Shown here: piece after piece, positions 6,702 through 48,609 of the stretch
Layout: each line of letters begins with the position of its first letter
Position numbering within the stretch: position 1 is the first letter of the stretch
Source of the DNA: an uncultured Acidobacteriota bacterium
GTDB taxonomy: Bacteria; Acidobacteriota; Thermoanaerobaculia; Multivoradales; UBA5704
Direction: 5' to 3'
NCBI GenBank assembly: GCA_963700145.1
Contig: OY969474.1
Span: forward strand, 1,632,001-1,696,000
DNA: 64,000 nt
Position numbers and translations under genes: made by a program
The notes under the pieces: generated by a model
Databases searched by the model: none
The model's input: only the letters and a program-made list of their open reading frames with translations
Told to the model about the DNA's origin: nothing

Positions 6702-6710
6702 TGAGCGATC

Positions 6711-12650: not shown

Positions 12651-12665
12651 TCCCCCCTGGACGAA

Positions 12666-13499: not shown

Positions 13500-16252
<2,753 letters not shown>

Positions 16253-22385: not shown

Positions 22386-22442
22386 GACGACTGCTACCTC
22401 TCGGTGAGGGCACCGGAGGAGCGCGCCGGGACGATTAGTCCG

Positions 22443-22633
22443 CGGGCGCTCCAGGACCGAATCGGGCGCTCGCCCACCGAAACGGGCGTCCCCGAACCGA
22501 AACGGGCGCTCGCGGACCGAAACGGGCGCTCCCGCACCGAAACCGGCGCTCCCCCACCGAAACGGGCGCTCGCCAACCGAAACGGGCGCTCCCCCACCGA
22601 AATGAGCGCTCCGGGGCCTAAATGGGCGGCTCG
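22443..22633. repeat. Tandem array of about 9 imperfect 20-bp units, consensus ACCGAAACGGGCGCTC(N4)
   Basis: accga recurs exactly every 20 nt from 22456 to 22596; degenerate units at both ends. Confidence 0.9.
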
Positions 22634-22709
22634 TCCCCGTCCTCGTCGCTCGGTTTACCTCCCGGCAGCGCGATTTCCGCCGCCGGGCCGCCCGCTAGAC
22701 TCCCTCGCG

Positions 22710-22848: not shown

Positions 22849-22852
22849 CTAG

Positions 22853-24122: not shown

Positions 24123-25070
24123 CTAGCGGAAGTACCCGTTGACGTCGATCACGAGGTGGACCGTTCCAGGGTCTGCGGCGAGGGAGGCCCGGACGCTCAG
24201 CATGCCGCTGCCGATCAGCGCGGCGATGCCGTTGTTTGCCCGCGTCTGGCCGGCGCTGAAGTTGATCGTCGAGGTGAGGGGCTCGACCGTCCCCGCCGCG
24301 AAGACTCGCAGGAACCCAGGCGCGGTCGGGCCGACGACGGTGATGTTGAACGAGACGGCGCGGGCGTCGGCGGGGATTCCGCACTGTCCGCCGAGCAGGA
24401 AGTCGCGGAGCTCGTTCGCGCCGAGAGCGGGCCCGCCGTGGGGACCGTCGGCCAACCGCGTGTCGACAACCCGGCACGGCAGCAGCGTGTAGAAGTCGCT
24501 CGGGGAAAGCGCCGCCGACGGGTCGACGCGAAAATAGGCTGCGCCGCCGCCGAACGGGCTGAGCTTGATCCGCATCGTGATCTCATGTGGCCCCGGCGAG
24601 AGAGAGAACAGACCCTGACTGACGCGCGGATCGGCGATGCACGGCTCGGGGTCGTCGCCACAGTCGGCGCCGAGGTCCCGCGGTGTCGAGGTGGCGCCGA
24701 GCTGGGCGCCGAAGTCGAAGATCTCGAACTGGTCGCCCAGCAAGAACGCGTCGGTCACCGTCAAGGTCGCCCCTCCGGCCGGAGCCGTGAACGTCCACGG
24801 CGGATCGTCGGCGAAAACGGAGTTCCCGCCCGAGCTCGGCACGCAGCCGCCCCCTTGGCAGCCCATCGCAAAGCTTCCCGGGCCGGCGAAACTGAACTCG
24901 TTCCACGGCCCGCCAATCGGTACGGGTCCCGGCGGCGGGCCCGTGCCCGGGGAAGCAGCCGGCCCTCCGACCTCGCGGCTCGCGACACCGTTGCCCTCTT
25001 GGGCAGAAATCTCCTGAGCGAGAAAAACCGCGACGCAGGCGGCCGAGAAGATCGCTCTCCTGCTGACCAT
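24123..25070 (-). CDS. Secreted protein with C-terminal PCRVVDTR...DVNGYF beta domain
   Basis: Signal peptide; Cys-containing N domain (TVTDAF..GDQFEIFD); C domain FYTLLPCRVVDTR..STINF..RANN..IDVNGYF. Confidence 0.8.
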   Translation of the reverse strand: MVSRRAIFSAACVAVFLAQEISAQEGNGVASREVGGPAASPGTGPPPGPVPIGGPWNEFSFAGPGSFAMGCQGGGCVPSSGGNSVFADDPPWTFTAPAGGATLTVTDAFLLGDQFEIFDFGAQLGATSTPRDLGADCGDDPEPCIADPRVSQGLFSLSPGPHEITMRIKLSPFGGGAAYFRVDPSAALSPSDFYTLLPCRVVDTRLADGPHGGPALGANELRDFLLGGQCGIPADARAVSFNITVVGPTAPGFLRVFAAGTVEPLTSTINFSAGQTRANNGIAALIGSGMLSVRASLAADPGTVHLVIDVNGYFR

Positions 25071-33707: not shown

Positions 33708-34565
33708 CTACTTCTTCGAGTAGTCGTAGAACCCCCTGCCGCTCTTCCGCCCCAGGCGGCCGGCAAGGACCATCTGCTTGAGCAGCGGCGGCGGGGCGAA
33801 GCGCTTCTCGCGGTACTCCTCGAACATGATGTTGGCGATGTAGTAGGTGGTGTCGAGGCCGACGAAGTCGAGGAGAGCGAAGGGCCCCATCGGGTAGCCG
33901 CAGCCGAGCTGCATCGCCTTGTCGATGTCCTCGAGCGACCCCACCCCCTCCTCGTAGGCGCGGATGGCGTCGAGGATGTAGGGGACGAGGAGGCGGTTGA
34001 CGATGAAGCCGGAGTTGTCGCGCGCCGTCACCGGCTCCTTGCCGAGCGTCTTGACGAAGGCGAAGGCCGACTGGAAGGTGTCGTCGGAGGTGGCGAGGGT
34101 GCGCACCACCTCGACCAGCTTCATCACCGGCACCGGGTTGAAGAAGTGGAGCCCGACGAAGCGGTCCGGGCGCTTGGTGGACATGGCGAGCTGGGTGATG
34201 GTCAGCGACGACGTGTTGCTGGCGAAGATCGCCTCGGGCTTGACCGCGGTGTCGAGGGCGGCGAAGGTCTGCCGCTTCTCCTCGGGGTTCTCGACGATCG
34301 CCTCGACGACCAGGTCGCAGTCCTCGAAGGCGGCGAGGTCGACCGTGCCGCTCAGCCGCGCCGCCGCCTCGTCGCGCTGGGCGGCCTCCAGCTTCCCCTT
34401 CTCCACCGCCTTGTCGAGCGAGCCGCGGATGCGTCCCATCCCCTTCTCCAGCAGCTCCTCGTTGACCTCCCGCACCACGGTCGGGTAGCCCGCCCGGGCG
34501 CAGACCTCGGCGATCCCGGAGCCCATCAGCCCGCTGCCCAGGACGCCCACCTTCTGGATCTTCAT
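33708..34565 (-). CDS. hbd: 3-hydroxybutyryl-CoA dehydrogenase
   Basis: GSGLMGSGIA, ASNTSSL, GLHFFNP, GFIVNRLL, GYPMGP. Confidence 0.93.
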   Translation of the reverse strand: MKIQKVGVLGSGLMGSGIAEVCARAGYPTVVREVNEELLEKGMGRIRGSLDKAVEKGKLEAAQRDEAAARLSGTVDLAAFEDCDLVVEAIVENPEEKRQTFAALDTAVKPEAIFASNTSSLTITQLAMSTKRPDRFVGLHFFNPVPVMKLVEVVRTLATSDDTFQSAFAFVKTLGKEPVTARDNSGFIVNRLLVPYILDAIRAYEEGVGSLEDIDKAMQLGCGYPMGPFALLDFVGLDTTYYIANIMFEEYREKRFAPPPLLKQMVLAGRLGRKSGRGFYDYSKK

Positions 34566-34581
34566 CGAATCCTCCTTGGGA

Positions 34582-35004
34582 TCATGTGAGTTCCTCCTCG
34601 ATCACCCGCTCCCCTTCGCTCTCCCCGCGCGCCAGCCGCAGCCGCCGCGCCCCGGCGACCGGCCAGGGAAGCCGCTCCGGCCACTCCACCACCTTGACCC
34701 CGGGGCCGGCCAGCAGCTCCTCCAGCCCCAGCCCCGCCGCCTCGGCCGGCTCCAGGCGGTAGAGATCGACGTGCACGAGGCGCGCCCCGCCCGGGCCGGC
34801 GTGTTCGCGGATCAGCGTGAAGGTCGGCGAGGCGATCTCCCGCGGCGCGATCCCCAGCCCGCGCGCCACACCTTGCGCCAGCACCGTCTTGCCGCTCCCC
34901 AGGTCGCCGGCCAGGAGGAGCGTACCGTCCGGGGCCAGCTCGGCGGCGAGCGCCTCCCCCACCCTCCGGGTCTCCTCCTCCGACACGGTGCGCCAGCGTC
35001 TCAC
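34582..35004 (-). CDS. tsaE: tRNA t6A biosynthesis ATPase TsaE
   Basis: GDLGSGKT, SPTFTL, HVDLYRL, VEW. Confidence 0.95.
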   Translation of the reverse strand: MRRWRTVSEEETRRVGEALAAELAPDGTLLLAGDLGSGKTVLAQGVARGLGIAPREIASPTFTLIREHAGPGGARLVHVDLYRLEPAEAAGLGLEELLAGPGVKVVEWPERLPWPVAGARRLRLARGESEGERVIEEELT

Positions 35005-36563
35005 GACGGGCCGGAGGCGACGCGGGCCAGATGGCGGAAGGCGGACGGCAGCTCTTCGGCCAGGTCGCCGGCCGAAAGCCCGCGCGTCCCCTGCCGCTCG
35101 GCGGCGAGGTCCCCGGCCAGGCCGTGGACGTAGGCGCCGGCCAGGGCCGCGGCGAAGGGATCGAGTCCCTGGGCCAACAGGGCGGCGAGGAGGCCGGTGA
35201 GCACGTCGCCGGTGCCGCCGGTGGCCATCCCGGGGTTGCCGGTCGGGTTGATCCAGACCTCGCCGTCGGGGCTCGCCACCAGCGTCCGCCGCCCCTTGAG
35301 GAGGACGACCGCGCCGGTCTCGCGCGCCAGGCGCTCGGCCGCCCCTACACGGTCGGCCTGCACCTCGGCGGCGGTGAGCCCGAGGAGGCGGCCGGCCTCG
35401 CCCGGGTGCGGGGTGAGGATGGCCGGGCTCGCGCGCTCCGCGAGCTCCCCGGCGCGCCCGGCGAAAGCGTTCAGACCGTCGGCGTCGACCACCACCGGCA
35501 CCGGCGATTCGCGCACGAGACGGCGCACCGCCTCGGCCGTCTCGGGGTCGGTGCCGAGCCCGGGCCCCAGAGCGAGCGCCCCCTTCCCCGCCATCGCCGC
35601 ATGCACCCGCTCGACCGCGGCGCCGGCGAGGGCGCCCGCGGCGTTCGCCGGCAGCGGTACCGTCATCGACTCGGCCGAGCCCGCGGCGACACTCGGGAGG
35701 ATCGGCTCCGGCACCGCCACCGTGACCAGCCCCGCCCCGCCCCGCACGGCGCCGCGCGCGGCCAGAACCGCTGCGCCGGCCTTCCCCCGCGAGCCGGCGA
35801 CCAACAAGGCATGGCCGCAGTCCCCCTTGTGGGCGCCGGCGGGACGCGGCGGCAGGAGGGCGGCGGCCTCCTCCTCGGTCAGCAGGTGGAGCGCGCCGGG
35901 CGCCGCCTCGACCAGCCAGGGCGGGATGCCGAGGTCGGTCACCACCAGCTCCCCCACCGAGTCCGCCGCCGGCGGCAGGACGTGCGCCACTTTGGGGGCG
36001 GCGAAGGTCACCGTCAGGTCGGCGCGCAGGTGCGGCTCCCAGGCCTCGGCGCGGCTCCCCGCGAGGCCGCTCGGGAGGTCCACGGCCACGCGCGGCCGCG
36101 GCAGCGCGTTGAGGGCGGCGACGAGGGCCGCGAAGTGCCCTTCGAGCGGCCGCGCCAGGCCAGTGCCGAAGAGGGCGTCGACGACGAGGTCGGCCGCCGC
36201 GGCGGCGGCGAGGTGCGGGGCGAGGTCGCCGTCGGGCGGCAGCTCGACGAGCGGCAGCTCGAGGGCGCGGACGATGCCGAGCTGCACCGCCGCGTCGCCG
36301 CCGAGCGCCCGCCCACCGGCCGCTAGCACGGTCTCGACCTGATAGCCGCGCACCGCCAGGTGGCGCGCCACGGCCAGGCCGTCGCCGCCGTTGTTGCCCG
36401 GGCCGCAGAAGACGACCGCGGAGGCGGCGCGCGGGTAGACCTCGCCGATCGCCTCGACGACGCCGATCGCGGCGTTCTCCATGAGCACCAGCCCCGGCAC
36501 TCCCAGCTCGTCGATGGCCGCGCGGTCGAGCGCGCGCATCGCCTCGGCGGTCAGGACCCGCAC
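35001..36563 (-). CDS. nnr: Bifunctional NAD(P)H-hydrate epimerase/dehydratase
   Basis: LMENA, GPGNNGGDG, DALFGTG, HKG, DADGLN, TPHPGE, GGTGDVL. Confidence 0.95.
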   Translation of the reverse strand: MRVLTAEAMRALDRAAIDELGVPGLVLMENAAIGVVEAIGEVYPRAASAVVFCGPGNNGGDGLAVARHLAVRGYQVETVLAAGGRALGGDAAVQLGIVRALELPLVELPPDGDLAPHLAAAAAADLVVDALFGTGLARPLEGHFAALVAALNALPRPRVAVDLPSGLAGSRAEAWEPHLRADLTVTFAAPKVAHVLPPAADSVGELVVTDLGIPPWLVEAAPGALHLLTEEEAAALLPPRPAGAHKGDCGHALLVAGSRGKAGAAVLAARGAVRGGAGLVTVAVPEPILPSVAAGSAESMTVPLPANAAGALAGAAVERVHAAMAGKGALALGPGLGTDPETAEAVRRLVRESPVPVVVDADGLNAFAGRAGELAERASPAILTPHPGEAGRLLGLTAAEVQADRVGAAERLARETGAVVLLKGRRTLVASPDGEVWINPTGNPGMATGGTGDVLTGLLAALLAQGLDPFAAALAGAYVHGLAGDLAAERQGTRGLSAGDLAEELPSAFRHLARVASGPS

Positions 36564-36585
36564 GGTCAGGACCCGCGGAGATGTC

Positions 36586-36622
36586 CCCCTCTCCCATGTG
36601 GGAGAGGGGCCAGGGGTGAGGG
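36586..36622. repeat. REP-like hairpin CCCCTCTCCC-atgt-GGGAGAGGGG with GGGGTGAGGG tail
   Basis: 10-bp perfect stem; matches a common dispersed repeat shape (CCCTCACCCC..CCCTCTCCC..GGGAGAGGG). Confidence 0.7.
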
Positions 36623-36674
36623 AGATGGGATCAACGCAGGAAAGGTGGAAGCCTCTTGGATGCTCCCGTCAGGT

Positions 36675-37364
36675 TCAGCGGCCGCAGCCAACGAGAGGGT
36701 CCCTCTTAACCAGTCGATCCCAGGCCTCAAGGAGGCCCCGGGTCCGGGGGCAGCCCAGATCGCCGGCGGCCATCTCGGCGGCGAGGCGGCGGAGGTCGGC
36801 GGGGGTGTCCACGTCGGCGGCATGAGGCAGGAGCTCGACGGCGAGGCCGAGCTCGCGGCAGCGGTCGAGGGTGGCGGCGAGGACGCCGGCGGTGGACCAG
36901 GGGATCTCGCTGAAGAGGCGCGGGTCGAGGGCGGCGGCGCGCAGGGCGATGAGGTAGTAGCCGCCGTCTTCGGCGGGGCCGAGGACGACTTCGGCGCCGG
37001 CTTCTAGGCGCTCGAAGGCGCGGTGGACGAGGGGCAGGGGGAGGGTGGGGTGGTCGCTGCCGAGGGCGGCGACGAGGAGGGCCTCGCGGGCGGCGGCGGA
37101 GAGGGCGCGGTGGAGGCGGGCGCCTAGGTCATGGCCTTCCTGGCGGAGGCCGGGGACGGGGCCGGCGGGGAGGGGGTCACCGGGGTCGAGGTCCCAGGCT
37201 AGGCGGAGGTCGAAGTCGCCGGCGCTGAGGCGTTCCAGGAGATCGGCGAGGAAGGCGGCGTGGAGGTCGGCGGCTTCCTCGGGGCTAAGATCGCCGATTA
37301 GGCGGGTTTTGACTCGGCCGGGGCGGGCTGGCTTGGTGAAGAGAAGAAGGCGGCGGCCGGGCAC
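36675..37364 (-). CDS. DUF2064 / TIGR04282-family glycosyltransferase-like protein
   Basis: K.A.PGRVKTRL, QEG.DLG.R, GSDHP, LGPAEDGGYYL, DVDTPADL. Confidence 0.88.
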   Translation of the reverse strand: MPGRRLLLFTKPARPGRVKTRLIGDLSPEEAADLHAAFLADLLERLSAGDFDLRLAWDLDPGDPLPAGPVPGLRQEGHDLGARLHRALSAAAREALLVAALGSDHPTLPLPLVHRAFERLEAGAEVVLGPAEDGGYYLIALRAAALDPRLFSEIPWSTAGVLAATLDRCRELGLAVELLPHAADVDTPADLRRLAAEMAAGDLGCPRTRGLLEAWDRLVKRDPLVGCGR

Positions 37365-37393
37365 ACGCGGATTGTATATGGGGAGCCGTGGAG

Positions 37394-37556
37394 GGTCGGT
37401 TGGGGGCCTCCCGGCGGGAACCGGCGCGCGCAACAGATGACTGCCGGATCTGAGGCGCGCGCCTGCGCTTCGCTGCGCGCGGAATCGGGCGGTGGGCCGC
37501 AAAGGGTGTTGCCAGCGCTTGCTCAGAGCTTCCCGCCGGGAGGCCCCCAACCGACC
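37394..37556 (+). repeat. Structured dispersed element, copy C (163 bp)
   Basis: Perfect 27-bp inverted repeat (37394-37420/37530-37556) enclosing ACCGGCGCGCGC...GGCGCGCGCCTGCGCTTCGCTGCGCG...GGGTGTTGCCAGCGCTTGCTCAGAGCT. Confidence 0.85.
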
Positions 37557-37610
37557 GGGAGCGGCCGTGGCCGCCCTACCCAGAAAAAAGAAGCAAGAAA
37601 AGGATACGGA

Positions 37611-38414
37611 TTGCCCCTCCTGACTCTGCTCACCGACTTCGGGACGGCGGACTACTACGTCGCGGCGGTCAAGGGGGTGGTGCTGCGGCTGGCGCCGGGG
37701 ACGGTGATCGTGGATGTTGGGCACGAGGTGGCGCCTGGGGACGTGGAGGCGGGCGCTTTCCTCTGGTCGGCCGCCGTGCGTTGGTTTCCAGAGGGGACGG
37801 TGCACCTGGCGGTCGTGGATCCCGGCGTTGGGAGCGAACGGCGGATCCTGGCGGCGCGGGGGGAGCGGGGATTCCTGCTGGCCCCGGACAATGGGTTGCT
37901 CACGCCGTTTCTGGACGAGCCCGGGTTCGAGGTGCGGGTGGTGGAGCGGGAGGACCTGTTTCTTCACGGGCCCGGCACCACGTTCCATGGGAGGGACAGG
38001 TTCGCGCCGGTGGCGGCGTGGGTGCTGCGGGGGGAGGCTTTCGAGGCGCTGGGGCCGGTTGTGGGGGATGCGGTGCGGCTGCCGGGCGAGCGGCCGCGGC
38101 GGGAGGGGGGGCGGCTCACCGGACGGGTGATTCACGTCGATCGGTTCGGGAACCTGGTGACCGACATCCCTTCCGACTGGCTGCCGCCGGGGCCCTGCCG
38201 CGTCGCGGTCGGCGGCCACGCCACCGAGCGCCGCGCCACGCATTACGCGGAGGTCCCGGCCGGCGAGGCTGCCCTCCTTCCCGGGTCTCTCGGCACCCTG
38301 GAGCTGGCGGTCAACGGCGGGCGGCTGGCCGATCTCTGGCGGGTCGGGCGGGGCGCTGGGGTGACCATCGACTGCGGGGTTGGTACGGATCTTTCAGAGA
38401 TTTCGGGCGGCTAG
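37611..38414 (+). CDS. SAM hydroxide adenosyltransferase (DUF62; chlorinase/fluorinase family)
   Basis: TLLTDFG, VVDPGVGSER, APDNG, TFHGRD, DRFGN; TTG start. Confidence 0.92.
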   Translation: MPLLTLLTDFGTADYYVAAVKGVVLRLAPGTVIVDVGHEVAPGDVEAGAFLWSAAVRWFPEGTVHLAVVDPGVGSERRILAARGERGFLLAPDNGLLTPFLDEPGFEVRVVEREDLFLHGPGTTFHGRDRFAPVAAWVLRGEAFEALGPVVGDAVRLPGERPRREGGRLTGRVIHVDRFGNLVTDIPSDWLPPGPCRVAVGGHATERRATHYAEVPAGEAALLPGSLGTLELAVNGGRLADLWRVGRGAGVTIDCGVGTDLSEISGG

Positions 38415-38464
38415 GCGCCGCGCCGGCCCCGGGGCGGCGCCGGAGGGTGGGAAGGAGCGCGGCC

Positions 38465-38662
38465 ATGAGCAAGTGGGAGTACAAGATCATCAACATCCGG
38501 AGCGAGAACTATCGCCTCGATCCGAACGCCGCCACGCAGATGAATCAGTTGGGCGAGGAGGGGTGGGAGCTGGTCTCGATCACCTCGGTCAACTTCAAGA
38601 CCGGGGCCACGGACAACATCGCGATGGTCTTCAAGCGGCCGGTGACGGCCGCGCCCGCCTAG
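38465..38662 (+). CDS. DUF4177 small protein
   Basis: KWEYK..NQLGEEGWELV..FKRP; AAGGAG RBS. Confidence 0.88.
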   Translation: MSKWEYKIINIRSENYRLDPNAATQMNQLGEEGWELVSITSVNFKTGATDNIAMVFKRPVTAAPA

Positions 38663-38904
38663 TCGCTGTCGCGCTTGCTGCGCCGGGCCGCGAGGCGCTT
38701 CTTCTTGCGGCGGGTGCGGCGTAGCGCCACGGCCAGCCCGCCGGCGCCGGCGAGCAGCCCGACCAGCAGGTACTTGTGCCGCGGCACGAAGCCGAGCTCG
38801 CTCTCGACCGAGCCGCGCAGCTCCCCGAGCCGCAGTTCCAGGTCGCGGCGCGCCTCTTCCAGCCGGCGCTCGGCCTCGCTCAGCTCGTCGCTGTCGCTTC
38901 CCAT
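38659..38904 (-). CDS. Small membrane-anchored protein (DUF3618-like)
   Basis: Coiled N-terminus, C-terminal TM and basic tail; AGGAG RBS; follows the holin-like gene. Confidence 0.65.
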   Translation of the reverse strand: MGSDSDELSEAERRLEEARRDLELRLGELRGSVESELGFVPRHKYLLVGLLAGAGGLAVALRRTRRKKKRLAARRSKRDSD

Positions 38905-38906
38905 GC

Positions 38907-39356
38907 TCACTCCTCCTCGACCGCCGCGGCCGAGCCAGCCGCCCGCGCCGCCTCGCGCGGCGTCACCACCGGCCGCTCCTCGCGCAGCAGGCTGCTCTGC
39001 CACCAGGCGAGGTGATCGGAAAGGCGGCGGCCGATCGTCCGCGCCGGCCCTTCGAAGGCGCGCAGCTTCTTGGTCCCGATCCAGCCGAGGAGCGCCACGA
39101 CCAGCGCCAGGAGACCGGTGACGATGAGCGCCGCCCCCCAGACCGGCAGCCAGATCGCCAGCAGCGCCACCAGCGCCACCAGCAGCAGCCCGACGAGCCA
39201 GAAGGCCACCACCAGCGCCGCGCCGAAGAGCGCCGCCGCCGCGCCCAGCCGCTTCGCCGACAGGGTGACGTCGGCGCGCAGCGCCTCGCTCTCGGCGCGC
39301 AGCACCTCGAGGAAGGCGGCGCCGATCGCGCGGAGCTGGTCGATGAAGTCGTGCAT
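38907..39356 (-). CDS. Phage holin family (YqjE/Holin-X-like) membrane protein
   Basis: Two TMs with WGAALIV motif; usually a chromosomal family. Confidence 0.75.
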   Translation of the reverse strand: MHDFIDQLRAIGAAFLEVLRAESEALRADVTLSAKRLGAAAALFGAALVVAFWLVGLLLVALVALLAIWLPVWGAALIVTGLLALVVALLGWIGTKKLRAFEGPARTIGRRLSDHLAWWQSSLLREERPVVTPREAARAAGSAAAVEEE

Positions 39357-39373
39357 CCGGGTCCCGCGCGCCC

Positions 39374-41107
39374 CTACGCCCCGGTCCCGACCCGCACGAC
39401 GCGCGAGATGAAGGAGCTCTCCGAGCCGACGTCGTCGCGCGCCCCCACCGCCACGCGGTGGTCGCCGCCGCGCATCAGCAGGGTCAGCGAGTAGGTGTAG
39501 TGCTTGCCGCGGGCGCTCTCCACCTCGGCGATGGGGATCTGAATCGGCACCCGCGCCTGCTGCACCTCGGAGGTGCCGCCGTCGGCGTCCATGACCGCGA
39601 AGTAGAGCCGCACGACGCCGTCGTGGGTCTGCTCGCGCGGGATCAGCAGCAGCTTGCCGAGCGGGATGCGGACCTGGACCGGCTGCAGGAAGTGGCCGTC
39701 GTCCTTGCGCGTCGGCCGGTCGAAGGTGACCTCGATGCCGAGGGGGTTCTCCTCGTAGGGGAAGTTGAGGGCGGCGAGGGTGCCGTCCGCCATCTGCGCC
39801 TCGGAGCTCTTGTCGCGGTAGCCCTCGCGGTGGCGCACCACGAGCCCCTTGCGCTTCACCTTGACCTCGATCGTGTGGTAGCGGCCGTCCCCGACGTGGG
39901 ACGGCGAGTAGCCGAGCGAGTAGTAGGTCTTGAAGTCGTTGGCGATCTTCTCCAGGTGCGACAGCACGCTGTTGGCGTTGAGGATGGCCTTGCCGCCGGT
40001 CGTCGCCGCCATGTACTGCAGCGGGCTCTGCATGTTCGACATGGTGATCTGGTCGAGGAAGATGCTCTGCCCGGCGCCGCCGGAGTTCTCGGCCGAGATC
40101 GAGGAGTAGGTGCGCAGGCCGGCGGCGTCGATGGTGTAGAAGGTGATGCGGTTGGCGTTGGCCTGCGAGGCCAGCTCGCGGAAGCGGCGCGAGGCGTCGA
40201 AGCGGAAGCCTTCGGTCAGGCTGGCGCCGGCGCTCTGCCCGAACTTCTGCTCGACGGCGTAGAAGAGCTCCTGGCCGGCCGTCATCGGCAGGCCGTCGCT
40301 GACGTAGAGGACCGCCTTGCGGCCCGGCATCCCGGCCAGCATGTCGACCGTCGTCTTGAGGCCGTCGATCGAGAAGTTGAGGTCGTTGGCGATCGACTCG
40401 GCATAGCTGCGGGCGTAACCCAGCGCCTGCTGCGGGCTCTCCGACTCCTCGATGCGCGCCAGGGCGTCGCGCCGCTCGGAGTCGTGGTGGACGGCATGGC
40501 CGGAGACGGTCTCGAGGTCGCCGAGGGCGGCGGCGACCAGGGCGGGGTCGCTGGTGAAGGTGCGCCGCACCTTGAGCGAGCGGTCGTAGGTGACCAGCAT
40601 CACCCGGTCCTCACGCGTCACGTTCTGGTTGAGGAAGGTGCGCATCTCGCGCAGCACCCGGTTGCGGTTGAACGGGTGGATGTTGAAGTTGTCGACGTAG
40701 ACGATGAGCCGCAGCCGCTGGTCCTCGGGGACCGGCTCCGGCGCCGGCGGAGCTCCGGTGGCGCTCGCGACCATTGCCGGCCCGGGGTCGGAGGCCGCGG
40801 AGGGCTTCCCGCCCTCGACGGCGTAGAAGTTGGTCACGGCCATCGGCTTGCGGTCCTCGAACAGCTCGAAGTCGTTCTTGGTCAGGCCGGTGATCGGGTT
40901 GCCCTTCTTGTCGGTGACGTAGACGTCGACGTTGACCACGTTGACGCTGACGATGTCGGCGAAGAACTCCTGCCCCTCCCCCGGCGGTTGCGTGCCGCGA
41001 GGCTTCTGCGCCAGGAGGACCGCCCCGGGGAGGAGCAGGAGAGAGAGCGCCGCCGCGGCGAAGGCCCGGCGGGAGTGGCGGAGGGACGTACGGCGGGTGA
41101 CTCGCAT
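39374..41107 (-). CDS. Acidobacterial VWA-domain exported protein 1
   Basis: VNVVNVDVYVTDKKG.P..GLT..DF, GRKAVLYVSDG, TGG, YYSLGY, RHREGY. Confidence 0.9.
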   Translation of the reverse strand: MRVTRRTSLRHSRRAFAAAALSLLLLPGAVLLAQKPRGTQPPGEGQEFFADIVSVNVVNVDVYVTDKKGNPITGLTKNDFELFEDRKPMAVTNFYAVEGGKPSAASDPGPAMVASATGAPPAPEPVPEDQRLRLIVYVDNFNIHPFNRNRVLREMRTFLNQNVTREDRVMLVTYDRSLKVRRTFTSDPALVAAALGDLETVSGHAVHHDSERRDALARIEESESPQQALGYARSYAESIANDLNFSIDGLKTTVDMLAGMPGRKAVLYVSDGLPMTAGQELFYAVEQKFGQSAGASLTEGFRFDASRRFRELASQANANRITFYTIDAAGLRTYSSISAENSGGAGQSIFLDQITMSNMQSPLQYMAATTGGKAILNANSVLSHLEKIANDFKTYYSLGYSPSHVGDGRYHTIEVKVKRKGLVVRHREGYRDKSSEAQMADGTLAALNFPYEENPLGIEVTFDRPTRKDDGHFLQPVQVRIPLGKLLLIPREQTHDGVVRLYFAVMDADGGTSEVQQARVPIQIPIAEVESARGKHYTYSLTLLMRGGDHRVAVGARDDVGSESSFISRVVRVGTGA

Positions 41108-41117
41108 CGCCGCGATT

Positions 41118-42776
41118 CTAGCTCGCCGGGGGGATGATCTGCGTCTCGGCGGTCAGCAGGACGCCGCTGGCGCGGTCGAAGACGGCGACGATCAGGCGCT
41201 GCTTGGCGCGGCGCAGGCGGAGGGTCGTGGTGTAGGGGATGTACTTCCCGGCCGCCGGCTTCTCGGGGATCGAGATGGTGAGCGGCACCACCGGCACCGG
41301 GGCCCGGCGGCCGTCCTCGTCCACCGCCGCCACCCGCAGCTCCAGCTCGGCCACCCACTTCTTCCCCTCCCCGCCCACCGGGATGATGGTGATCGAGTCC
41401 ACCGGGATCGCCACCGTCACCGGCACCTCGATCTCCCGCCGCCCCGAGCGCTTGACCGCCCCGACCTGGATCGGCAGCGGCTGAGTGCCCGGAGGGTTGC
41501 CGAAGAGCAGGGCGCTCTCGACCATCATCGAGATCTCGGCGGTCCGCGAGACGTCGAGGTAGTCCTCGCGCGAGCGGACGCTGAGCCCGGGGCGGAGGAC
41601 GGCGACCTCGATGTCGTGCCGGCCGTCGTCGCGCTTGCGCGTCGGGCTGAAGCCCAGCCAGTAGTACGACCGGGTGTCCTCCGCCGCCCGCGCCAGCGCC
41701 TCGCCGCGCGCGGCGTTGAGCAGGGGGCGGCCGCCGGTCTCGTCGGCCACGAACTCCAGCGAGCGGTGGATCTCGTTCTCGCGCACGTTGAGCCCGGTGG
41801 GCGCGGGGCTGTCGGCGGCGGCGTCCACCGTCTCGGCCTCCAGCCCCGGCACGTCCACCGGGTAGACGGTGTAGCCGAGGAGGTTCGCGGTGTCCACGAG
41901 CGGCCGGAACAGGTCGGCGCCGCCCTGGACCTCGCGGTCGATGATCGGCTGCTGCGGGTCGTTGATCGTGTAATCCGCCGGCGAGTACGGCCAGCCGCCG
42001 GAGAGGAGGAGCATCACCTTCCGTCCCGGCGGCGAGGCGAAGCCGCGCAGGGTGGTGACCGCCGCGGCCACCGCCGTCCGCACCTGCTCGGAGAGGCGCT
42101 CGGCGAAGGCCCGCTCCTCGAAGTCGAGGCGGGTGCCGAGCCCGGCGATGCGGGCGCGGGCGTCCATCGTCGGGCTCGGCGTGTTGCGGCGGGAGACCTC
42201 GAAGCTCCGCCGCTCGGCGAGCCGCTCGAGCCCCCGGCCGCGCCGCAGCATCGCCTTGTCGAAGGCCCGCTCGAGCTGGTTCTGGGAATTCGACCAGGAG
42301 GAGAGCATCTCCAGCGAGCGGCCGTCGAAGGCCACCACCGCCATCCGGTCCTGTGGGCCGAGGCGGGCGAGGTCCGCCTTGAGGTCGCGCAGCACCGAGT
42401 CGCGCCGCTGCTCGATGGCGAAGAGGTCGTCGATGAAGACCAGGTAGCTGGTGCCGACCGGCTCGCCGGGCGACAGGGCGGGCAGGCCCGGCAGCGGCGC
42501 GGCCTCGGCGGCGGTGGGGGCTATCGCTTGGCCGCCCAAGACCTCGGTGAAGTACTCGATCGGCACCTGCTTGCCGTCCACCGTCAAGCGGAAGTCGCCC
42601 GGCCCCAGCCCCGAGACGCGGTTGCCGTCGCGGTCGGTGACCACGACCTCGACGTTGACCACCCGCACCTCGATCAGCTCGCCGAAGGTCTCCTGCGGCG
42701 GCGTCTCCTGGGCTACGGCGGGGGCGAGGCTGGCGCAGAGCAGAGCGGCGGCGGCGAGAGGCGAGCGGAAGCGCAT
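41118..42776 (-). CDS. Acidobacterial VWA-domain exported protein 2
   Basis: EVRVVNVEVVVTDRDG, GRKVMLLLSGGWP, ETGG, SYYWLGF. Confidence 0.9.
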   Translation of the reverse strand: MRFRSPLAAAALLCASLAPAVAQETPPQETFGELIEVRVVNVEVVVTDRDGNRVSGLGPGDFRLTVDGKQVPIEYFTEVLGGQAIAPTAAEAAPLPGLPALSPGEPVGTSYLVFIDDLFAIEQRRDSVLRDLKADLARLGPQDRMAVVAFDGRSLEMLSSWSNSQNQLERAFDKAMLRRGRGLERLAERRSFEVSRRNTPSPTMDARARIAGLGTRLDFEERAFAERLSEQVRTAVAAAVTTLRGFASPPGRKVMLLLSGGWPYSPADYTINDPQQPIIDREVQGGADLFRPLVDTANLLGYTVYPVDVPGLEAETVDAAADSPAPTGLNVRENEIHRSLEFVADETGGRPLLNAARGEALARAAEDTRSYYWLGFSPTRKRDDGRHDIEVAVLRPGLSVRSREDYLDVSRTAEISMMVESALLFGNPPGTQPLPIQVGAVKRSGRREIEVPVTVAIPVDSITIIPVGGEGKKWVAELELRVAAVDEDGRRAPVPVVPLTISIPEKPAAGKYIPYTTTLRLRRAKQRLIVAVFDRASGVLLTAETQIIPPAS

Positions 42777-42838
42777 GGGAAAGGTCTCCGGGATCGGTGG
42801 GGGCACAGGACGGACGTCAAAAGGCACAACTCGCTGCG

Positions 42839-42862
42839 GCCCGGCCGGAATTCCGGCCGGGC
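42839..42862. other. Perfect 24-bp palindrome between VWA genes (hairpin or binding site)
   Basis: gcccggccggaattccggccgggc is its own reverse complement; no poly-U tail. Confidence 0.5.
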
Positions 42863-42887
42863 GGCAGGCGCGTGGGGCTTTCCACTC

Positions 42888-44579
42888 CTAGAGATCGACG
42901 TCCAGGTCGCTCCAGAGCATGGTCCCCGACAGCGCGTCGTGGATGCCGAAGACCACCCGCTGGTCGATGCGCCGGAGCTTGAGATTGACCTGGAAGCGCA
43001 CGGCGCTGCCGGGGCGGGGCGGCTCCGCCAGGTCGAGCCGCAACGGCAGCAGCGGCAGCGGCGAGCGCCCGCCCCAGCGGTCGAGCGCGGCGAGCGAGAG
43101 GGTGACCTCGGCGCGGAAGCCCTTCCCGGCCGGGTAGATGGTCAGCGCCTCGCTCGGCACCGAGATCGTCACCGGCAGGCGCGTCATGCGCCCGCCGGCG
43201 CGGGTCGCCTTCCCCACCCCCACCTGCAGCTTGCGGTCGGCCTCGCGGCCGCCGAAGAGCAGCACGCTCTCGGTGCGGCGCGCCGTCTCGCTCGCCCGCG
43301 AGAGGTCGGTGAAGCCGCTGCGGGTGCGCACGCGGAGGCCGGGACGCAGCACCTCGACCCGCACCTCGTGGCGCCGGTCGTTCGCCTGCCAGGTGGGGGT
43401 GAAGCCGAGCCAGTAGTAGGAGCGGGTGTCGTCGGCCACGCGCTCGAGGGCGGCCAGGCGGGAGTTGTCGAGCAGCGGTGCGCCGCCGGTCTCGGCGGCC
43501 AGGAAGCGCAGCGCGTCGTGCGTCTCCTGCTCCCACTCCGAGGTGAACGCGCCGCGGCCCGGGACCTGGTCCTCGGCGTCGGCGATGACCGACCGGATGT
43601 CGCGCCCCTGCACGTCCACCGCATAGATCGTGTAGCCGAGCAGGTTCGCGGTGTCGGCGAGGGGGCGGTAGACGTCCTGGCCGTACGCGAGGTACGCCGT
43701 ACTGGTGAGGGAACGGCCGGGCTCGCGCAGGTCGTCGTGCGCCGAGTAGGGCCAGGCGCCGGCGAGGAGCAGCATGATCTTGCGCCCTTCGGCGGGCGGC
43801 ACGCCGCGCAGCGCCGCCGCCGCCGCCGACACTGCTCCCTGGACACGGCTCGACAGATCCGGCCATCGCTCTCCGACCCGCGCCGCCTCTCTGCCGGTCG
43901 ACGCCGCGTACACTCCCGGCAGCGGTGCGTCGAGCGCCGCTTGGCGCCTGCCGCCGCCGATGGGTGCCATCGCCAGCGCCGACTCGCGGCGCAGCGAACG
44001 GCGGTTCGCGACCACCTCGATCCCGCGCGCCGGGCGGCGCCGCGCCTCCGCCAGACCGGCCTGCAGCAGGCGGGCGTCGCCCGTCCACTCGCTGAGCAGA
44101 TCCAGCCGGCGCCCGTCGAAGGCGACGATCGCCATGCGATCCTCTGGCGCCAGGCGCGACAGCTCCCGCCCGAGCTCGTCGAGCACCTGGTTGCGCTGCG
44201 CGGCGACGGCGAAGCTCTCGTCGACGAAGACCAGGATGCTGCGGCCGATCCGGCCGTCGGCGGACGGGACCGGAGCGGCGGCGACCGTCGGCGGCGGCGC
44301 CGCGCTCTCGCCCTCGACCACCTCGGTGAAGTAATCGATCGCGACCGGCGCGCCGTCGACGAGGAGCCGGAAGTCGGCGGGCCCGAGCCCGCGGACGCGC
44401 TCGCCGGCGCGGTCGGCGACGACCGCCTCGACGTTCACCACGCGCACGTCGACGGCGTCGCCGAACCCCGCGTCGGCCGCTGGGGCCGCGGCGGCGGAGA
44501 CGGAGACACCGGACAGGAAAGGGAGGGCCGCGGCGACCGCGGCGAGGGCGAGGCGCTGGGGGCGGCTGGAGAGAGTCAT
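42888..44579 (-). CDS. Acidobacterial VWA-domain exported protein 3
   Basis: DVRVVNVEAVV, GRKIMLLLAGAWP, ETGG, DTRSYYWLGF; AGGAGG RBS. Confidence 0.9.
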   Translation of the reverse strand: MTLSSRPQRLALAAVAAALPFLSGVSVSAAAAPAADAGFGDAVDVRVVNVEAVVADRAGERVRGLGPADFRLLVDGAPVAIDYFTEVVEGESAAPPPTVAAAPVPSADGRIGRSILVFVDESFAVAAQRNQVLDELGRELSRLAPEDRMAIVAFDGRRLDLLSEWTGDARLLQAGLAEARRRPARGIEVVANRRSLRRESALAMAPIGGGRRQAALDAPLPGVYAASTGREAARVGERWPDLSSRVQGAVSAAAAALRGVPPAEGRKIMLLLAGAWPYSAHDDLREPGRSLTSTAYLAYGQDVYRPLADTANLLGYTIYAVDVQGRDIRSVIADAEDQVPGRGAFTSEWEQETHDALRFLAAETGGAPLLDNSRLAALERVADDTRSYYWLGFTPTWQANDRRHEVRVEVLRPGLRVRTRSGFTDLSRASETARRTESVLLFGGREADRKLQVGVGKATRAGGRMTRLPVTISVPSEALTIYPAGKGFRAEVTLSLAALDRWGGRSPLPLLPLRLDLAEPPRPGSAVRFQVNLKLRRIDQRVVFGIHDALSGTMLWSDLDVDL

Positions 44580-47541: not shown

Positions 47542-48609
47542 ATGATTACCGACGCCACGCGCGAGCGCGCCGCGGAGCTGCGGCGGGTGGTCGAGGCGCC
47601 GCCCGCGGGGCCCTGGCTCGTCCTCACCCACGACAACCCGGACCCCGACGCGCTGGCCTCGGCGGCGCTGCTCGAGCACCTCCTGACCGAGGTCTGGAAG
47701 CGCCGCGTCACCGTCGCCTACGGCGGCATCGTCGGCCGCGCCGAGAACCGGGAGATGGTCAAGACGCTGCGGCTCGAGCTCGCCCACGTGCGCGGCCTCG
47801 ACTTCGGCCGCTTCCGCCGCTTCGCCCTGGTCGACAGCCAGCCGCGCACCGGCAACAACCAGCTCCCCGACCGCATCGTCCCCGACCTCGTTTTCGACCA
47901 CCACCCGCTGCGCAAGGCGACCCTCGCCGCGCGCTTCGCCGACGTCCGCCCGAAGTACGGCGCCACCGCCACCATCCTCACCGAGCACCTGCTGGCCGCC
48001 GGCGTCCGCCCGGGCCGGGCCCTCGCCACCGCGCTGGTCTACGCCATCCGCTCCGAGACCCAGGACTTCAGCCGTGAGTTCGCCCCTCCGGACAAGGCGA
48101 TGTACGACGCCTTCCTCCCGGAGATCAACCAGCGGGCGCTGGGGCGCATCCAGAACGCGCCGCTGCCGCTCGGCTACCTGCGCAACCTCCACGACGCGCT
48201 GGAGAACCTGGAGACCGTCTCCAACCTGATCGTCAGCCACCTCGGGCCGGTCGACCACCCGGACATCGTCCCCGAGGTGGCCGATCTCCTCCTCCGCCTC
48301 GAAGGGATGACCTGGTCGCTCGCCACCGGCCTCCACGGCGACCGCATCTACCTCTCGCTCCGCACCACCAACGGCCGCGCCGACGCCGGCCGGGTGATGC
48401 GCGCCCTCGTCGGCCGACGCGGCAAGGGCGGCGGCCACGGCATGATGGCGGGGGGCTGGGTCGAGACGGCGAAGGCCGCGAACGGCGACGTCAAGCAGCT
48501 CCAGCGGCAGCTCGGGCAGCGGCTCGCAGCCCTGCTGCGCAAGAACCCGGAAAAGCTGGCCCGCATCGAGCTCAAGCGGGTCGAGGCCGAGCCGCCCCCG
48601 GCGGGCTGA
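47542..48609 (+). CDS. DHH-family phosphoesterase
   Basis: HDNPDPDA, FDHHP, GGGH. Confidence 0.92.
   Translation: MITDATRERAAELRRVVEAPPAGPWLVLTHDNPDPDALASAALLEHLLTEVWKRRVTVAYGGIVGRAENREMVKTLRLELAHVRGLDFGRFRRFALVDSQPRTGNNQLPDRIVPDLVFDHHPLRKATLAARFADVRPKYGATATILTEHLLAAGVRPGRALATALVYAIRSETQDFSREFAPPDKAMYDAFLPEINQRALGRIQNAPLPLGYLRNLHDALENLETVSNLIVSHLGPVDHPDIVPEVADLLLRLEGMTWSLATGLHGDRIYLSLRTTNGRADAGRVMRALVGRRGKGGGHGMMAGGWVETAKAANGDVKQLQRQLGQRLAALLRKNPEKLARIELKRVEAEPPPAG

Follow-up and report, generated by a model that had tools for sequence, protein, structure and literature searches.

Strand bias across a divergent gene pair

Two neighbouring genes of the 64-kb window (the whole stretch of DNA analysed, 64,000 nucleotides) point away from each other and are nevertheless depleted of C on the same strand, and the question raised by this locus is whether the bias belongs to the genes or to the hairpin repeat lying between them. 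The first gene (36675-37364, minus strand) encodes a DUF2064 family protein (Pfam PF09837, E 7.7e-24), glycosyltransferase-like and with weak CofC similarity, and the second (37611-38414, plus strand) a SAM hydroxide adenosyltransferase (SAM_HAT, former DUF62; Pfam PF01887 and PF20257, with E 3.6e-47 for SAM_HAT_N and 1.4e-20 for SAM_HAT_C). An earlier, sequence-only reading of this DNA had counted G37 and C10 at 37021-37080 in the DUF2064 gene and G31 and C13 at 37681-37740 in the SAM_HAT gene, against C28 and G14 in a comparison gene (DHH, 47821-47880), and our recounts returned exactly these values. The claim that one plus-strand bias runs across both genes agrees with third-position counts in 30-codon windows, which gave, on the plus strand, G22-28 versus C1-6 per 30 codons over 36765-37304 in DUF2064 and G15-20 versus C6-11 over 37613-38152 in SAM_HAT. 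Usage had been said to normalise after about 38160; third positions of SAM_HAT indeed flip to G10/C19 at 38153.

The biased DNA, hereafter termed the halo, consists of two tracts. The left (5'-side) tract, 36773-37383, is C-poor and G/T-rich on the plus strand and recodes nearly the whole DUF2064 gene, while the right (3'-side) tract, 37570-38152, carries the same plus-strand bias through the first ~180 codons of SAM_HAT, i.e., its 5' two thirds, and ends abruptly inside the gene. Step-model fits gave tract lengths of 610 and 550 bp, respectively, with ends at about 36773 and about 38120. In 1-kb windows around copy C of the repeat, GC skew reaches +0.24 and +0.25 and AT skew ranges from +0.06 to -0.10. 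The genome-wide GC skew of 200-bp windows has a mean of 0.002 and a standard deviation of 0.108, and an absolute GC skew >0.15 occurs in just 4.6% of 5000 random 650-bp windows; the skew at copy C is far above chance. The genome is a single contig, 95% complete; codon positions were taken from a simple in-house gene caller (4212 genes, 85% of the genome), of which the raw oriented GC-skew profile is independent. A minus-strand open reading frame across the whole halo (36675-38243) was rejected as a read-through artefact of the C-poor plus strand, the family match being confined to its DUF2064 part. No tRNA or tmRNA was found within the 64-kb window. Contigs from four soil/urban metagenome runs over 34500-40500 derive from related strains; they are short and were left out of the halo analysis.

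The hairpin repeat and its copies in the window

Copy C (37394-37556, plus strand; covariance-model match, with an nhmmer match at 37403-37550) belongs to a repeat family, family 1, that measures ~185 nt with flanks and has 41 copies in the genome. Its outer stem of 27 bp is formed by perfectly complementary arms at 37394-37420 and 37530-37556, and the family core is a conserved, asymmetric, G+C-rich segment of 125 nt with an inner 9-bp hairpin. The consensus fold, derived from an alignment of 42 copies, comprises 44 pairs, 29 of them with compensatory changes and almost no G-U. In the same 42 copies the outer stem is nearly all Watson-Crick, with 0-1 one-sided changes per pair, a pattern more in keeping with a DNA than with an RNA structure. 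A search against Rfam 15 gave no match at gathering thresholds in the window and only chance-level hits on the element (E 4.5-8.5).

Two further family 1 copies of the window also carry halos. Copy A (7699-7863, minus strand) has a halo at about 6986-9139 of opposite sign on the plus strand, with a GC skew of -0.16 to -0.26 over 6501-8500, GC3 residuals of +0.57 and +0.75 in element orientation and tract lengths of 700 and 1270 bp. Copy B (12485-12650, plus strand) has a halo at about 11626-13452, G-rich on the plus strand and extending into the 5' part of mutL (identified by Pfam), with a GC skew of +0.15 to +0.21 over 11001-13500, GC3 residuals of +0.40 and +0.42 and tract lengths of 850 and 790 bp. 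Because these oppositely oriented copies, 4.6 kb apart, both have halos, each with the sign of its own element, the halo is independent of replication direction.

A second hairpin-repeat family (family 2) has the same architecture, and copies of it likewise lie in skewed islands; its copies are too similar for extensive covariation, more than one Watson-Crick type occurring in 6 of 66 pairs. All-against-all BLASTP of the 227 genes flanking both repeat families yielded no cluster of more than three, and nothing nuclease- or transposase-like recurred among them.

Genome-wide sign, shape and extent of the halo

Averaged over the 41 copies and oriented by the element, GC skew amounts to +0.20 to +0.25 within ~0.5 kb on both sides and falls to about zero beyond 1.2 kb, and its sign follows element orientation at ±300 bp in 36-37 of the 41 copies. 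Mean GC3 residuals of family 1 have one sign on both sides (left, +0.51 and +0.33; right, +0.40 and +0.34). The genome as a whole has almost no replication skew, values in 250-kb bins staying within ±0.021.

A clear tract was detected on 57 of 73 analysable sides. Tracts are discrete, about 0.4-1.5 kb long, with a median of 790 bp per side and ~1.8 kb across the element. Exponential decay, as expected from simple diffusion, was rejected as the shape of single halos in favour of a step model (lnL -41276 versus -41028), which was better on 52 sides versus 6, the step grid being finer than the exponential one. Sharp tract ends are common to genomes G000 and G004, which needs locus-specific end points. 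The best k-mers at tract ends occurred in 13 of 26 end windows versus 13 of 104 controls and in 16 of 28 versus 22 of 112, but they are G-rich and confounded by composition (three of four controls lie outside the halo) and become marginal after correction for ~1650 tests.

Conversely, the 34 strongest GC3-residual islands of the genome include 20 with a family 1 copy, five with a family 2 copy and nine without an element. At a lower threshold of 0.4, the sign of the island was concordant with the element in 30/30 family 1 and 7/7 family 2 cases. Element-free islands mostly correspond to a single IS or foreign gene; of the others, 12 intergenic regions were scanned for long hairpins, and just one region had any, belonging to a different short repeat. 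The sequence-only reading had considered that divergent gene pairs lacking the element might be skewed equally often; this is not so, as a same-direction deviation >0.3 in both genes was seen in 2/284 element-free divergent pairs versus 2/2 with the element, and both exceptional element-free pairs hold a family 2 copy.

Base-change signature and effect on proteins

Third positions on the element-sense strand are depleted of C and enriched in G and T in genes of either direction, with a skew shift of about 0.35-0.5, and C on this strand is disfavoured about four-fold. Sense-strand C gives way to G where this is synonymous and to T where the transition alone is synonymous. At four-fold sites of co-oriented genes, C drops from 0.54 to 0.24 and G rises from 0.41 to 0.68; on the coding strand of anti-oriented genes, C rises from 0.54 to 0.73 and G drops from 0.41 to 0.16. 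At two-fold sites, T/(C+T) of pyrimidine codons increases from 0.071 to 0.207 in co-oriented genes and A/(A+G) of purine codons from 0.086 to 0.35 in anti-oriented genes, with no rise in the reciprocal classes (0.072 and 0.054). The suggestion that the bias is linked to the element and not to transcription direction or codon selection is thereby sustained, its sign tracking the element and its size being equal in co- and anti-oriented genes.

A is the least affected base in halos, and TA skew is strong at third positions only. C is avoided in all dinucleotide contexts, its loss being strongest after a 5' G, whereas the gain of T is confined to sites that follow a 5' pyrimidine, a split for which no single simple lesion accounts.

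The effect reaches the protein level, with amino-acid shifts in the predicted directions: Val (x1.22) and Gly (x1.21) increase and Pro (x0.80) decreases in co-oriented halo genes, while Pro (x1.16) increases and Gly (x0.85) decreases in anti-oriented ones. Housekeeping genes, among them mutL, a tRNA synthetase gene and that of SAM_HAT, are altered both in the codons they use and in the amino acids they encode. Gene-model scores are lower beside elements, so that the halo mimics horizontally acquired DNA in codon-usage scans.

Comparison between genomes and ongoing change

The DUF2064/SAM_HAT pair is syntenic across the family. Orthologue comparison, proposed in the sequence-only reading, revealed the bias at the copy C locus in G000 and G004 only; the congener G002, in which the site is empty, and six other genera have ordinary third-position usage and no halo. 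Coding-strand GC3 skew of DUF2064, available in all nine genomes, is -0.81 to -0.63 in G000 versus -0.5 to +0.35 in halo-free orthologues, and that of SAM_HAT, available in three of the nine, is +0.26 to +0.70 in G000 and G004 versus -0.44 to +0.11 in G002. Joint acquisition of both genes from a donor with such codon usage, the other possibility raised beforehand, was not upheld, given the synteny of the pair, its ordinary relatives and the end of the bias inside SAM_HAT.

The element is not sufficient for a halo by itself, because several genomes have the one without the other. In a further congener, G003, the element occupies the copy C site, yet DUF2064 usage is background-like and a halo is absent; at locus L017 of G004, the element is complete and likewise lacks a halo. 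Halo-less related elements occur in several other families of the order, and elements matching the model but lacking halos were found in G051 (nine copies), G039 (nine), G026 (five), G043 (four) and G048 (three). The halos of G002 are weak (eight copies), and halo strength varies between lineages. Besides G000 and G004, G074 counts among the halo-bearing genomes, as do, in part, G003 and G046. The element-linked interpretation of the sequence-only reading is therefore supported, with the qualification that the element alone does not produce the effect. Orthologous copies are common to congeners and the repeats are inherited largely vertically; at one site, a decayed remnant in G000 is still flanked by a halo, and G004 has an intact element there.

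Comparison of G000 with G004 showed that the halo process continued after these two closest genomes split. Four-fold divergence is 0.150 in halos (n=3588) versus 0.106 in the background (n=29653), a 1.4-fold increase in synonymous divergence. In the time after the split, substitutions at C sites have been 2.6-3.8 times faster within halos, and reversions to C have been rarer there. From background to halo, C/T per C site rises from 0.017 to 0.064, C/G from 0.064 to 0.172 and C/A from 0.005 to 0.013, whereas G/C per G site falls from 0.069 to 0.039 and T/C per T site from 0.475 to 0.145; these data are unpolarised and partly saturated, and lie between pure mutation and pure fixation-bias models. 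A rise in one direction with a fall in the reverse is as predicted by repair or fixation bias.

Proposed origin of the halo

The halo seen around the repeat of this soil bacterium suggests that nearby genes are being rewritten by a local process not described before. In general terms, a bias of mutation or repair caused by the element is likely. We lean, with less assurance, towards the reading that the hairpin repeat, acting in cis, imposes a strand-asymmetric substitution pressure on its unique flanks, with a polarity given by element orientation.

The specific form sketched here is put forward tentatively: a factor would mark one strand at the hairpin, and the antisense strand would then be resynthesised outward. 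A lineage-specific factor may recognise the folded or extruded hairpin and mark one strand at that point time after time, with a nick or with a sliding clamp loaded in a fixed orientation like those directing MutL (mutL is present in the genome, according to Pfam). The antisense strand would be excised and resynthesised outward in both directions until a local roadblock. Because the sense strand would always serve as template, its lesions and mispairs (deaminated C, misincorporations) would become fixed, and those of the antisense strand would be erased; the expected outcome is a decay of sense-strand C, with changes back to C seldom fixed. Nick- or clamp-directed mismatch repair, its non-canonical and mutagenic use included, works bidirectionally from a strand signal, over roughly a kilobase and on one strand, and such action would give a symmetric, strand-specific, tract-like footprint. 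We know of no case in which mismatch repair is nucleated by a genomic repeat or leaves an evolutionary compositional footprint.

The most serious alternative, though a rather unlikely one, is strand-asymmetric biased gene conversion, the element being a hotspot or an uptake/recombination signal at which one strand of ~2 kb is repeatedly paired with a homologue. Heteroduplex repair removes G-G and G-T mismatches better than C-C and A-C, and sense-strand G or T alleles would accordingly win over C. The rates resemble a fixation bias (C-to-G x2.7, G-to-C x0.57, T-to-C x0.3), tract ends are discrete as in conversion tracts, and both the independence from gene and replication direction and the lineage-specific strength are compatible with conversion. 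Skew islands of a similar kind, the GRINS, have been tied to gene conversion by their authors (PMC8256042). Against this stand the absence of any sign of recombination at element sites, a four-fold divergence that is higher in halos where conversion calls for a lower one, and the special mechanism required for the use of a single strand on both sides. Furthermore, to our knowledge no uptake sequence resembles a 185-nt element with 41 copies.

Exposure by transcription, with or without R-loops, is improbable. It would assign to each element a ~2-kb sense transcription unit, whose exposed non-template strand loses C by deamination while the G-rich skew stabilises R-loops; promoters and terminators could then be the discrete tract ends, and the sign (G>C, T>A) matches what PMC10030826 and PMC10710837 report for the non-transcribed strand. 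However, at dozens of loci tracts start 0.4-1.5 kb upstream of the element, within genes that are unrelated and point either way, so that a promoter would be needed at each; moreover, flanking gene orientation has no effect, and deamination alone leaves the rarer changes back to C unexplained.

No more credible is selection in place of mutation, by which C-poor, G-rich flanks would help the element through lack of pairing with its G-rich hairpin arm, G-quadruplexes or protein-binding G-runs. Rates up in one direction and down in the other are also expected from selection, and C is avoided in every dinucleotide context, but fitness would have to be visibly affected by each of hundreds of synonymous sites at distances of up to 1.5 kb. 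In addition, the bias shifts amino acids of housekeeping proteins (e.g., those of mutL and an aminoacyl-tRNA synthetase gene), four-fold divergence is raised instead of lowered, the element exists without a halo at the copy C site of G003 and in other families, and the halo outlasts a decayed element.

Insertion of the element, in fixed orientation, into DNA already skewed is the least probable explanation of all: nine of the 34 strongest islands lack an element and one G000 site is skewed with only a remnant, but the islands without an element mostly consist of one IS or foreign gene, tracts extend to either side with the element at their centre, the empty G002 site and six outgroup genera show no skew, the filled but unskewed G003 site implies that skew is not needed for insertion, and halo C sites have still been turning over 2.6-3.8 times faster since the G000/G004 split.

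The value of the halo is that its skew can be traced to a small hairpin repeat at its centre, that it has a definite polarity and length scale, that its effect on rates is measurable and that it comes with natural on/off contrasts (filled versus empty site; halo genomes versus element-bearing genomes without halo), by which an unexplained compositional oddity becomes a testable mechanism. The factor sought should be present in G000, G004 and G074 and missing in G051 or G039. A wider and more speculative proposal, which we consider possible but doubtful, is that a strand-specific DNA-processing machine may use a non-coding DNA hairpin as the place where it is loaded or marked, the hairpin thereby forming a natural, heritable, orientation-polarised local mutator that recodes about 2 kb of neighbouring genes, and that GRINS-type skew islands in many bacterial phyla could have this origin. 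Should the mechanism prove to be a strand bias directed and oriented by the element, nature could thereby offer a model on which to build tools for targeted mutagenesis.

Relation to known systems

GRINS are the closest published phenomenon, although halos lack two of their three defining features. According to PMC8256042, GRINS, described in 2021, are >500 bp long, duplicated at >80% DNA identity and have mean absolute GC and TA skews both >0.15; PKS genes are their main location and gene conversion their means of spread, their origin being left open, and single-copy skew regions are mentioned as well. GRINS and halos alike show intense local GC skew over >500 bp that starts and stops abruptly within functional genes and peaks at third codon positions, with G>C accompanied by T>A; they also share an increase of Gly and Val and a decrease of Pro and Gln. 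Halos have the required length (median 790 bp; 610 and 550 bp at copy C). Unlike GRINS, however, they are not duplicated, none of 80 halo flanks matching another part of the genome over ≥300 bp with ≥80% identity, and GC skew exceeds 0.15 in 57/80 flanks, TA skew over the whole sequence in 20/80 and both in 17/80. Another difference is that halo tracts occupy single-copy housekeeping genes with no relation to one another and have a non-coding hairpin repeat at their centre, to whose orientation their sign is locked. The accessible GRINS literature, PMC8256042 included, makes no mention of a link between a repeat and skew, and no paper tying a repeat element to flanking strand-specific skew was found in the literature searched, which covered few subscription journals.

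Strand asymmetries of replication and transcription, in which deamination of cytosine on the exposed strand gives GC/AT skew (PMC10030826 and PMC10710837), resemble the halo in the loss of C and the over-representation of G and T on one strand. These skews are weak, follow fork or gene direction and span replichores or genes, whereas the sign of the halo follows a 185-nt element. A sign set by fork direction over large domains is at odds with the opposite copies A and B, 4.6 kb apart, and a sign set by gene orientation with the equal shift in co- and anti-oriented genes.

Mutation clusters of the kataegis (APOBEC) type, which arise in a strand-coordinated manner at resected breaks and are mentioned in PMC10030826, resemble halos in that C is lost locally from one strand, over about a kilobase, with C-to-T and C-to-G among the changes. 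The halo differs from them in having the same sign on both sides of the element, in being an evolutionary steady state and in that no deaminase is implicated. Break resection exposes opposite strands on the two sides, and the sign should flip across the centre; kataegis clusters are, besides, single somatic events. The adenine-specific changes and template/variable repeat pairs of diversity-generating retroelements, which encode a reverse transcriptase, have no counterpart here, A being the least affected base and the flanks being without a second copy.

With respect to the element itself, the nearest likeness is to REPINs and REP-BIMEs, which are likewise non-coding repeats that form hairpins, are scattered over intergenic regions in tens of copies and pass on largely by vertical descent; they are mobilised by RAYT (TnpA-REP) transposases. 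The term 'GC skew' was not found together with REPIN and RAYT in the portions of the literature searched. The host genome differs in having no RAYT gene, as no match to PF01797 (Y1 HUH transposase, RAYT/IS200) was found in a search that was positive in 6 of 14 known genomes used as controls. Family 1 itself appears to be one long stem of 27 bp around a conserved asymmetric core with a hairpin of its own, rather than a doublet of short REPs, and its arm sequences, unlike the conserved REPs, vary by compensatory change.

Skewed tracts flanking the hairpin repeat at copy C

The genome (G000) consists of a single contig of 5.46 Mb with a G+C content of 71.5%. Copy C of the hairpin repeat (family 1; approximately 37394-37556, its arms at 37394-37420 and 37530-37556 being perfectly complementary) lies between a minus-strand DUF2064 gene (36675-37364) and a plus-strand SAM hydroxide adenosyltransferase gene (SAM_HAT, formerly DUF62; 37611-38414), both confirmed by Pfam as the genes named in the sequence-only reading. 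The base counts of that reading proved exact (G37:C10 and G31:C13 near copy C, C28:G14 in the comparison gene). In 30-codon windows, plus-strand third positions contained G22-28 vs. C1-6 in DUF2064 and G15-20 vs. C6-11 in the first 180 codons of SAM_HAT, flipping to G10/C19 at 38153, in agreement with the return to normal usage placed at about 38160. GC skew at copy C reached +0.24 and +0.25 in 1-kb windows; genome-wide, its standard deviation is 0.108 (200-bp windows), and among 5000 random 650-bp windows just 4.6% had an absolute skew >0.15. The flanks of copy A (7699-7863), oriented opposite to copy C, have GC skews of -0.16 to -0.26, the opposite sign, as orientation predicts, and those of copy B (12485-12650), oriented as copy C, have skews of the same sign as copy C (+0.15 to +0.21), matching its orientation. 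We refer to these flanking tracts, C-poor on the element-sense strand on both sides of the repeat, as halos.

Two of the 286 divergent gene pairs in the genome hold a family-1 element; in each of these pairs the two genes are shifted the same way by >0.4. Equally frequent skew at divergent pairs lacking the element, which the sequence-only reading had named as evidence against its proposal, was not found: same-direction deviation (>0.3 in both genes) occurred in 2/284, and both exceptions contain a second hairpin repeat (family 2). Joint acquisition of the two genes from one donor failed as well, the pair being syntenic across the family and the bias stopping inside SAM_HAT. Family 2 (approximately 208 bp, 20 full copies, e.g., 4223216-4223422 and 4624760-4624952, outside the window) resembles family 1 in its long G+C-rich outer stem and in a short motif resembling GGGACCG that follows the 3' arm. 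Its element-oriented halos show residuals of third-position GC skew (GC3) of +0.28/+0.30 5' of the element and, in the five copies with coding DNA 3' of it, of +0.24 to +0.82 there; the right side is mostly adjoined by 250-400 bp of additional non-coding DNA.

Genome-wide association of halos and elements

The genome contains 41 family-1 copies, including one remnant, by nhmmer, and 40 by covariance model. Over the 41 copies, element-oriented mean GC skew was +0.21 and +0.25 at -500 and -300 bp and +0.22 and +0.20 at +300 and +500 bp, respectively, falling to approximately zero beyond ±1.2 kb; it was positive at 36/41 copies at -300 bp and at 37/41 at +300 bp. Of 34 islands with a third-position skew residual >0.5, 20 were associated with family 1, five with family 2 and nine with neither, and at a cut-off of 0.4 all family-1 (30/30) and family-2 (7/7) islands had the sign predicted by the element. 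The element-free islands inspected at this cut-off were mostly single-gene, some being repeated IS-sized ORFs of identical length, one scanned copy of which is an IS5-family transposase. The chromosome has nearly no replication GC skew (250-kb bins within ±0.021, cumulative skew without a clear V), so the element-linked tracts are its main strand-compositional feature.

The window holds two IS5-family copies (22849-24126 and 59634-60911), inverted to each other and 35.5 kb apart, each of 1278 bp, 100% identical and encoding DUF772 and DDE_Tnp_1 domains; their transposase genes favour codons ending in G and are themselves scored as skew islands. A tandem array of a 20-nt repeat (22405-22664, approximately 9-13 units) lies in intergenic DNA beside an IS copy.

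Bases, codons and residues affected

Codon positions were taken from our own gene calls (4212 genes, 85% coding), with bases read on the element-sense strand. In genes co-oriented with the element, third-position C fell from 0.54 to 0.30, G rose from 0.41 to 0.64 and T from 0.025 to 0.05-0.10; in anti-oriented genes C fell from 0.41 to 0.21 and G rose from 0.54 to 0.72, with T at 0.05-0.13. A remained nearly constant, and codon positions 1 and 2 moved slightly. In two-fold pyrimidine codons of co-oriented genes T/(C+T) rose from 0.071 to 0.207, and in two-fold purine codons of anti-oriented genes A/(A+G) rose from 0.086 to 0.35, with no rise in the reciprocal classes (0.072 and 0.054); at four-fold sites G takes the place of C. 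These shifts indicate that C is disfavoured approximately four-fold on one strand, regardless of gene direction. This equal shift in both gene orientations excludes gene-directed causes, namely codon selection and transcription of the flanking genes, and supports the element-linked effect that the sequence-only reading had inferred from the divergent pair. C was depleted in all dinucleotide contexts (odds ratios 0.08-0.79), most of all after a 5' G, and the gain of T was restricted to sites after a 5' pyrimidine.

Residue usage is altered accordingly in co-oriented (Val x1.22, Gly x1.21, Pro x0.80, Gln x0.76) and anti-oriented halo genes (Pro x1.16, His x1.18, Gly x0.85, Val x0.87). The gene mutL (10621-12435) starts next to copy B, whose halo covers the 5' part of the gene; this mismatch-repair gene is thus itself subject to recoding by the halo process.

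Orthologous sites and lineage dependence

The strand-skewed halo is a genuine phenomenon that applies generally within this genus and depends on lineage in the wider order. The orthologue comparison proposed by the sequence-only reading showed the halo together with the element in G000 and its congener G004, and no halo at the empty site of the congener G002. G004 (89% identity) carries the element at the copy C site and shares the bias, with coding-strand GC3 skews of -0.74 to -0.59 in DUF2064 (-0.81 to -0.63 in G000) and of +0.18 to +0.62, then -0.31, in SAM_HAT. In G002 (76-77% identity) the genes are separated by a 52-bp spacer without the element and usage is ordinary, as it is for DUF2064, the gene compared, in six other genera. 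A third congener, G003, has the element at this site, with contigs ending within it and an outer stem differing from that of G000 by compensatory changes; its DUF2064 GC3 skew is background-like (-0.35 to -0.02), with no positive skew on the right flank. With G002 empty and unskewed, and G003 filled yet background-like, the element is needed for the halo but is not enough.

Mean oriented skew in G004 (32 entries from 30 loci, two elements being counted twice) was +0.23 to +0.27 at -500/-300 bp and +0.25/+0.20 at +300/+500 bp. It was 0.16-0.19 near the element and approximately 0.04 at +500 bp in G003 (20 entries, two elements being counted twice), and +0.04 to +0.10 in G002 (8 copies). Within the genus, copy number tracks halo strength, from 41 copies where halos are strongest through at least 31 and at least 19 to 8 where they are weakest, a trend drawn from four related genomes of which two are fragmented. 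The covariance model matched 26/61 sampled genomes of the order and 0/6 genomes from other genera of the same family. Among the former, mean oriented skew was +0.15 to +0.26 in G074 (5 copies), +0.24 at +300 bp only in G046 (6 copies), and approximately zero in G051, G039, G026, G043 and G048 (9, 9, 5, 4 and 3 copies, respectively); 28 single loci from model-matching genomes had a mean skew of just +0.12 at +300 bp.

Substitution rates, history and tract shape

Twenty loci (245 kb) of G004 were aligned to G000 and compared at four-fold sites. Divergence was 0.150 at a distance of 100-600 bp from the element (n=3588) and 0.115 at 600-1000 bp (n=3313), compared with 0.106 in the background (n=29653). 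From background to halo, pair rates, unpolarised and without multiple-hit correction, changed per element-strand C site from 0.017 to 0.064 (C/T), 0.064 to 0.172 (C/G) and 0.005 to 0.013 (C/A), per G site from 0.069 to 0.039 (G/C), and per T site from 0.475 to 0.145 (T/C). Since the split of the two genomes, therefore, C has been lost 2.6-3.8 times faster in halos, and the frequency of returns to C has been 0.3-0.57 of the background value. An increase in C mutation alone would not alter return rates, and a pure fixation bias of the size observed (equilibrium odds shifted 4.7-fold) would give changes of approximately 2.0 and 0.42; the observed 2.7 and 0.57 fall between these models, with total turnover approximately 1.4 times higher.

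The majority of G004 element sites are orthologous to G000 sites. At 3086777-3086852 of G000 (outside the window) a decayed family-1 remnant corresponds to an intact copy in G004, and a skew tract is present in both genomes; this orphan halo suggests that tracts can outlive their element. Another locus has a full element in G004, a remnant in G000 and a halo in neither.

Over 73 analysable sides, a step model was superior to exponential decay (summed lnL -41028 vs. -41276; null -43015), being better by >1 unit on 52 sides vs. six for the exponential, and a finer step grid favoured the step somewhat. A clear tract was found on 57/73 sides, with a median length from the element edge of 790 bp (interquartile range 580-1060, 10-90% range 430-1522) and similar lengths on both sides (760 and 865 bp). 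At copy C the tracts of G000 and G004 end in the same codon block, and examination of tract ends for a sequence motif yielded none that was convincing.

Structure of the element and possible mechanism

The family-1 consensus fold comprises 44 pairs, 29 of them with compensatory double changes (42 copies, three genomes). Sequence is free to vary in the 27-bp outer stem, with 0 or 1 one-sided (G-U type) changes per pair. Judged from sequence, such strict Watson-Crick pairing fits better with a structure acting as DNA, or with mutually corrected arms, than with an RNA. An Rfam search with the element matched no family, a search of the G000 genome with profile PF01797 (RAYT, which mobilises REPIN hairpin repeats) gave no match, and no gene recurred among those compared beside element copies.

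The footprint is strand-specific, symmetric and tract-like over approximately 1 kb and needs a lineage-specific factor; it fits best with a model in which one strand is processed repeatedly, starting from the hairpin. A nick or an oriented sliding clamp would be placed at the element, and the antisense strand would be excised and resynthesised both ways from it as far as local roadblocks; the sense strand would serve as template every time, so that its lesions and mispairs would become fixed. Nick- or clamp-directed mismatch repair acts in a strand-specific, symmetric and tract-like manner over approximately 1 kb, and mutL is present in G000. Less probable rival explanations are strand-specific recombination in which correction depends on the mismatch, an R-loop or sense transcript, selection favouring C-poor flanks, and an insertion preference of the element. 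Insertion into DNA that was already skewed is contradicted by the unskewed empty site, the unskewed filled site and the continuing fast turnover of C. Break-and-resection predicts a sign change across the element, and none was seen. Replication direction is excluded both by copies A and B, which lie 4.6 kb apart in opposite orientations and both have halos, and by the near-absence of replication skew on the chromosome.

Relation to published skew islands

The closest published phenomenon is GRINS (PMC8256042), a class of skew islands in bacterial genes. Halos and GRINS share intense local skews with abrupt changes, a third-position signal and the same amino-acid shifts. By the definition given for GRINS, however, halos do not belong to them, since 0/80 flanks were duplicated and just 20/80 had a TA skew >0.15. 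The passages of that paper that were examined describe no hairpin repeat as the centre of GRINS or as setting their polarity. The literature searched, mostly outside subscription journals, contained no report of a flanking skew linked to a repeat. Among the unexplained skew islands, halos form a new type that is centred on an element and for which we infer the mechanism proposed here.

Other features of the window

A segment of approximately 135 bp (36572-36706), between the Nnr/YjeF gene and DUF2064, lies close to the left halo end of copy C. In G004, and likewise in contigs from two soil metagenome runs (joints 36562/36707 and 36572/36715), its orientation is reversed with respect to the flanking DNA. 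It also has matches at several other places in G002 and resembles a small repeat able to invert or move. Three adjacent minus-strand genes at 39374-44579, of approximately 560-580 codons each and with common internal repeats spaced 1.72-1.78 kb apart, seem to be three paralogues arranged in tandem.
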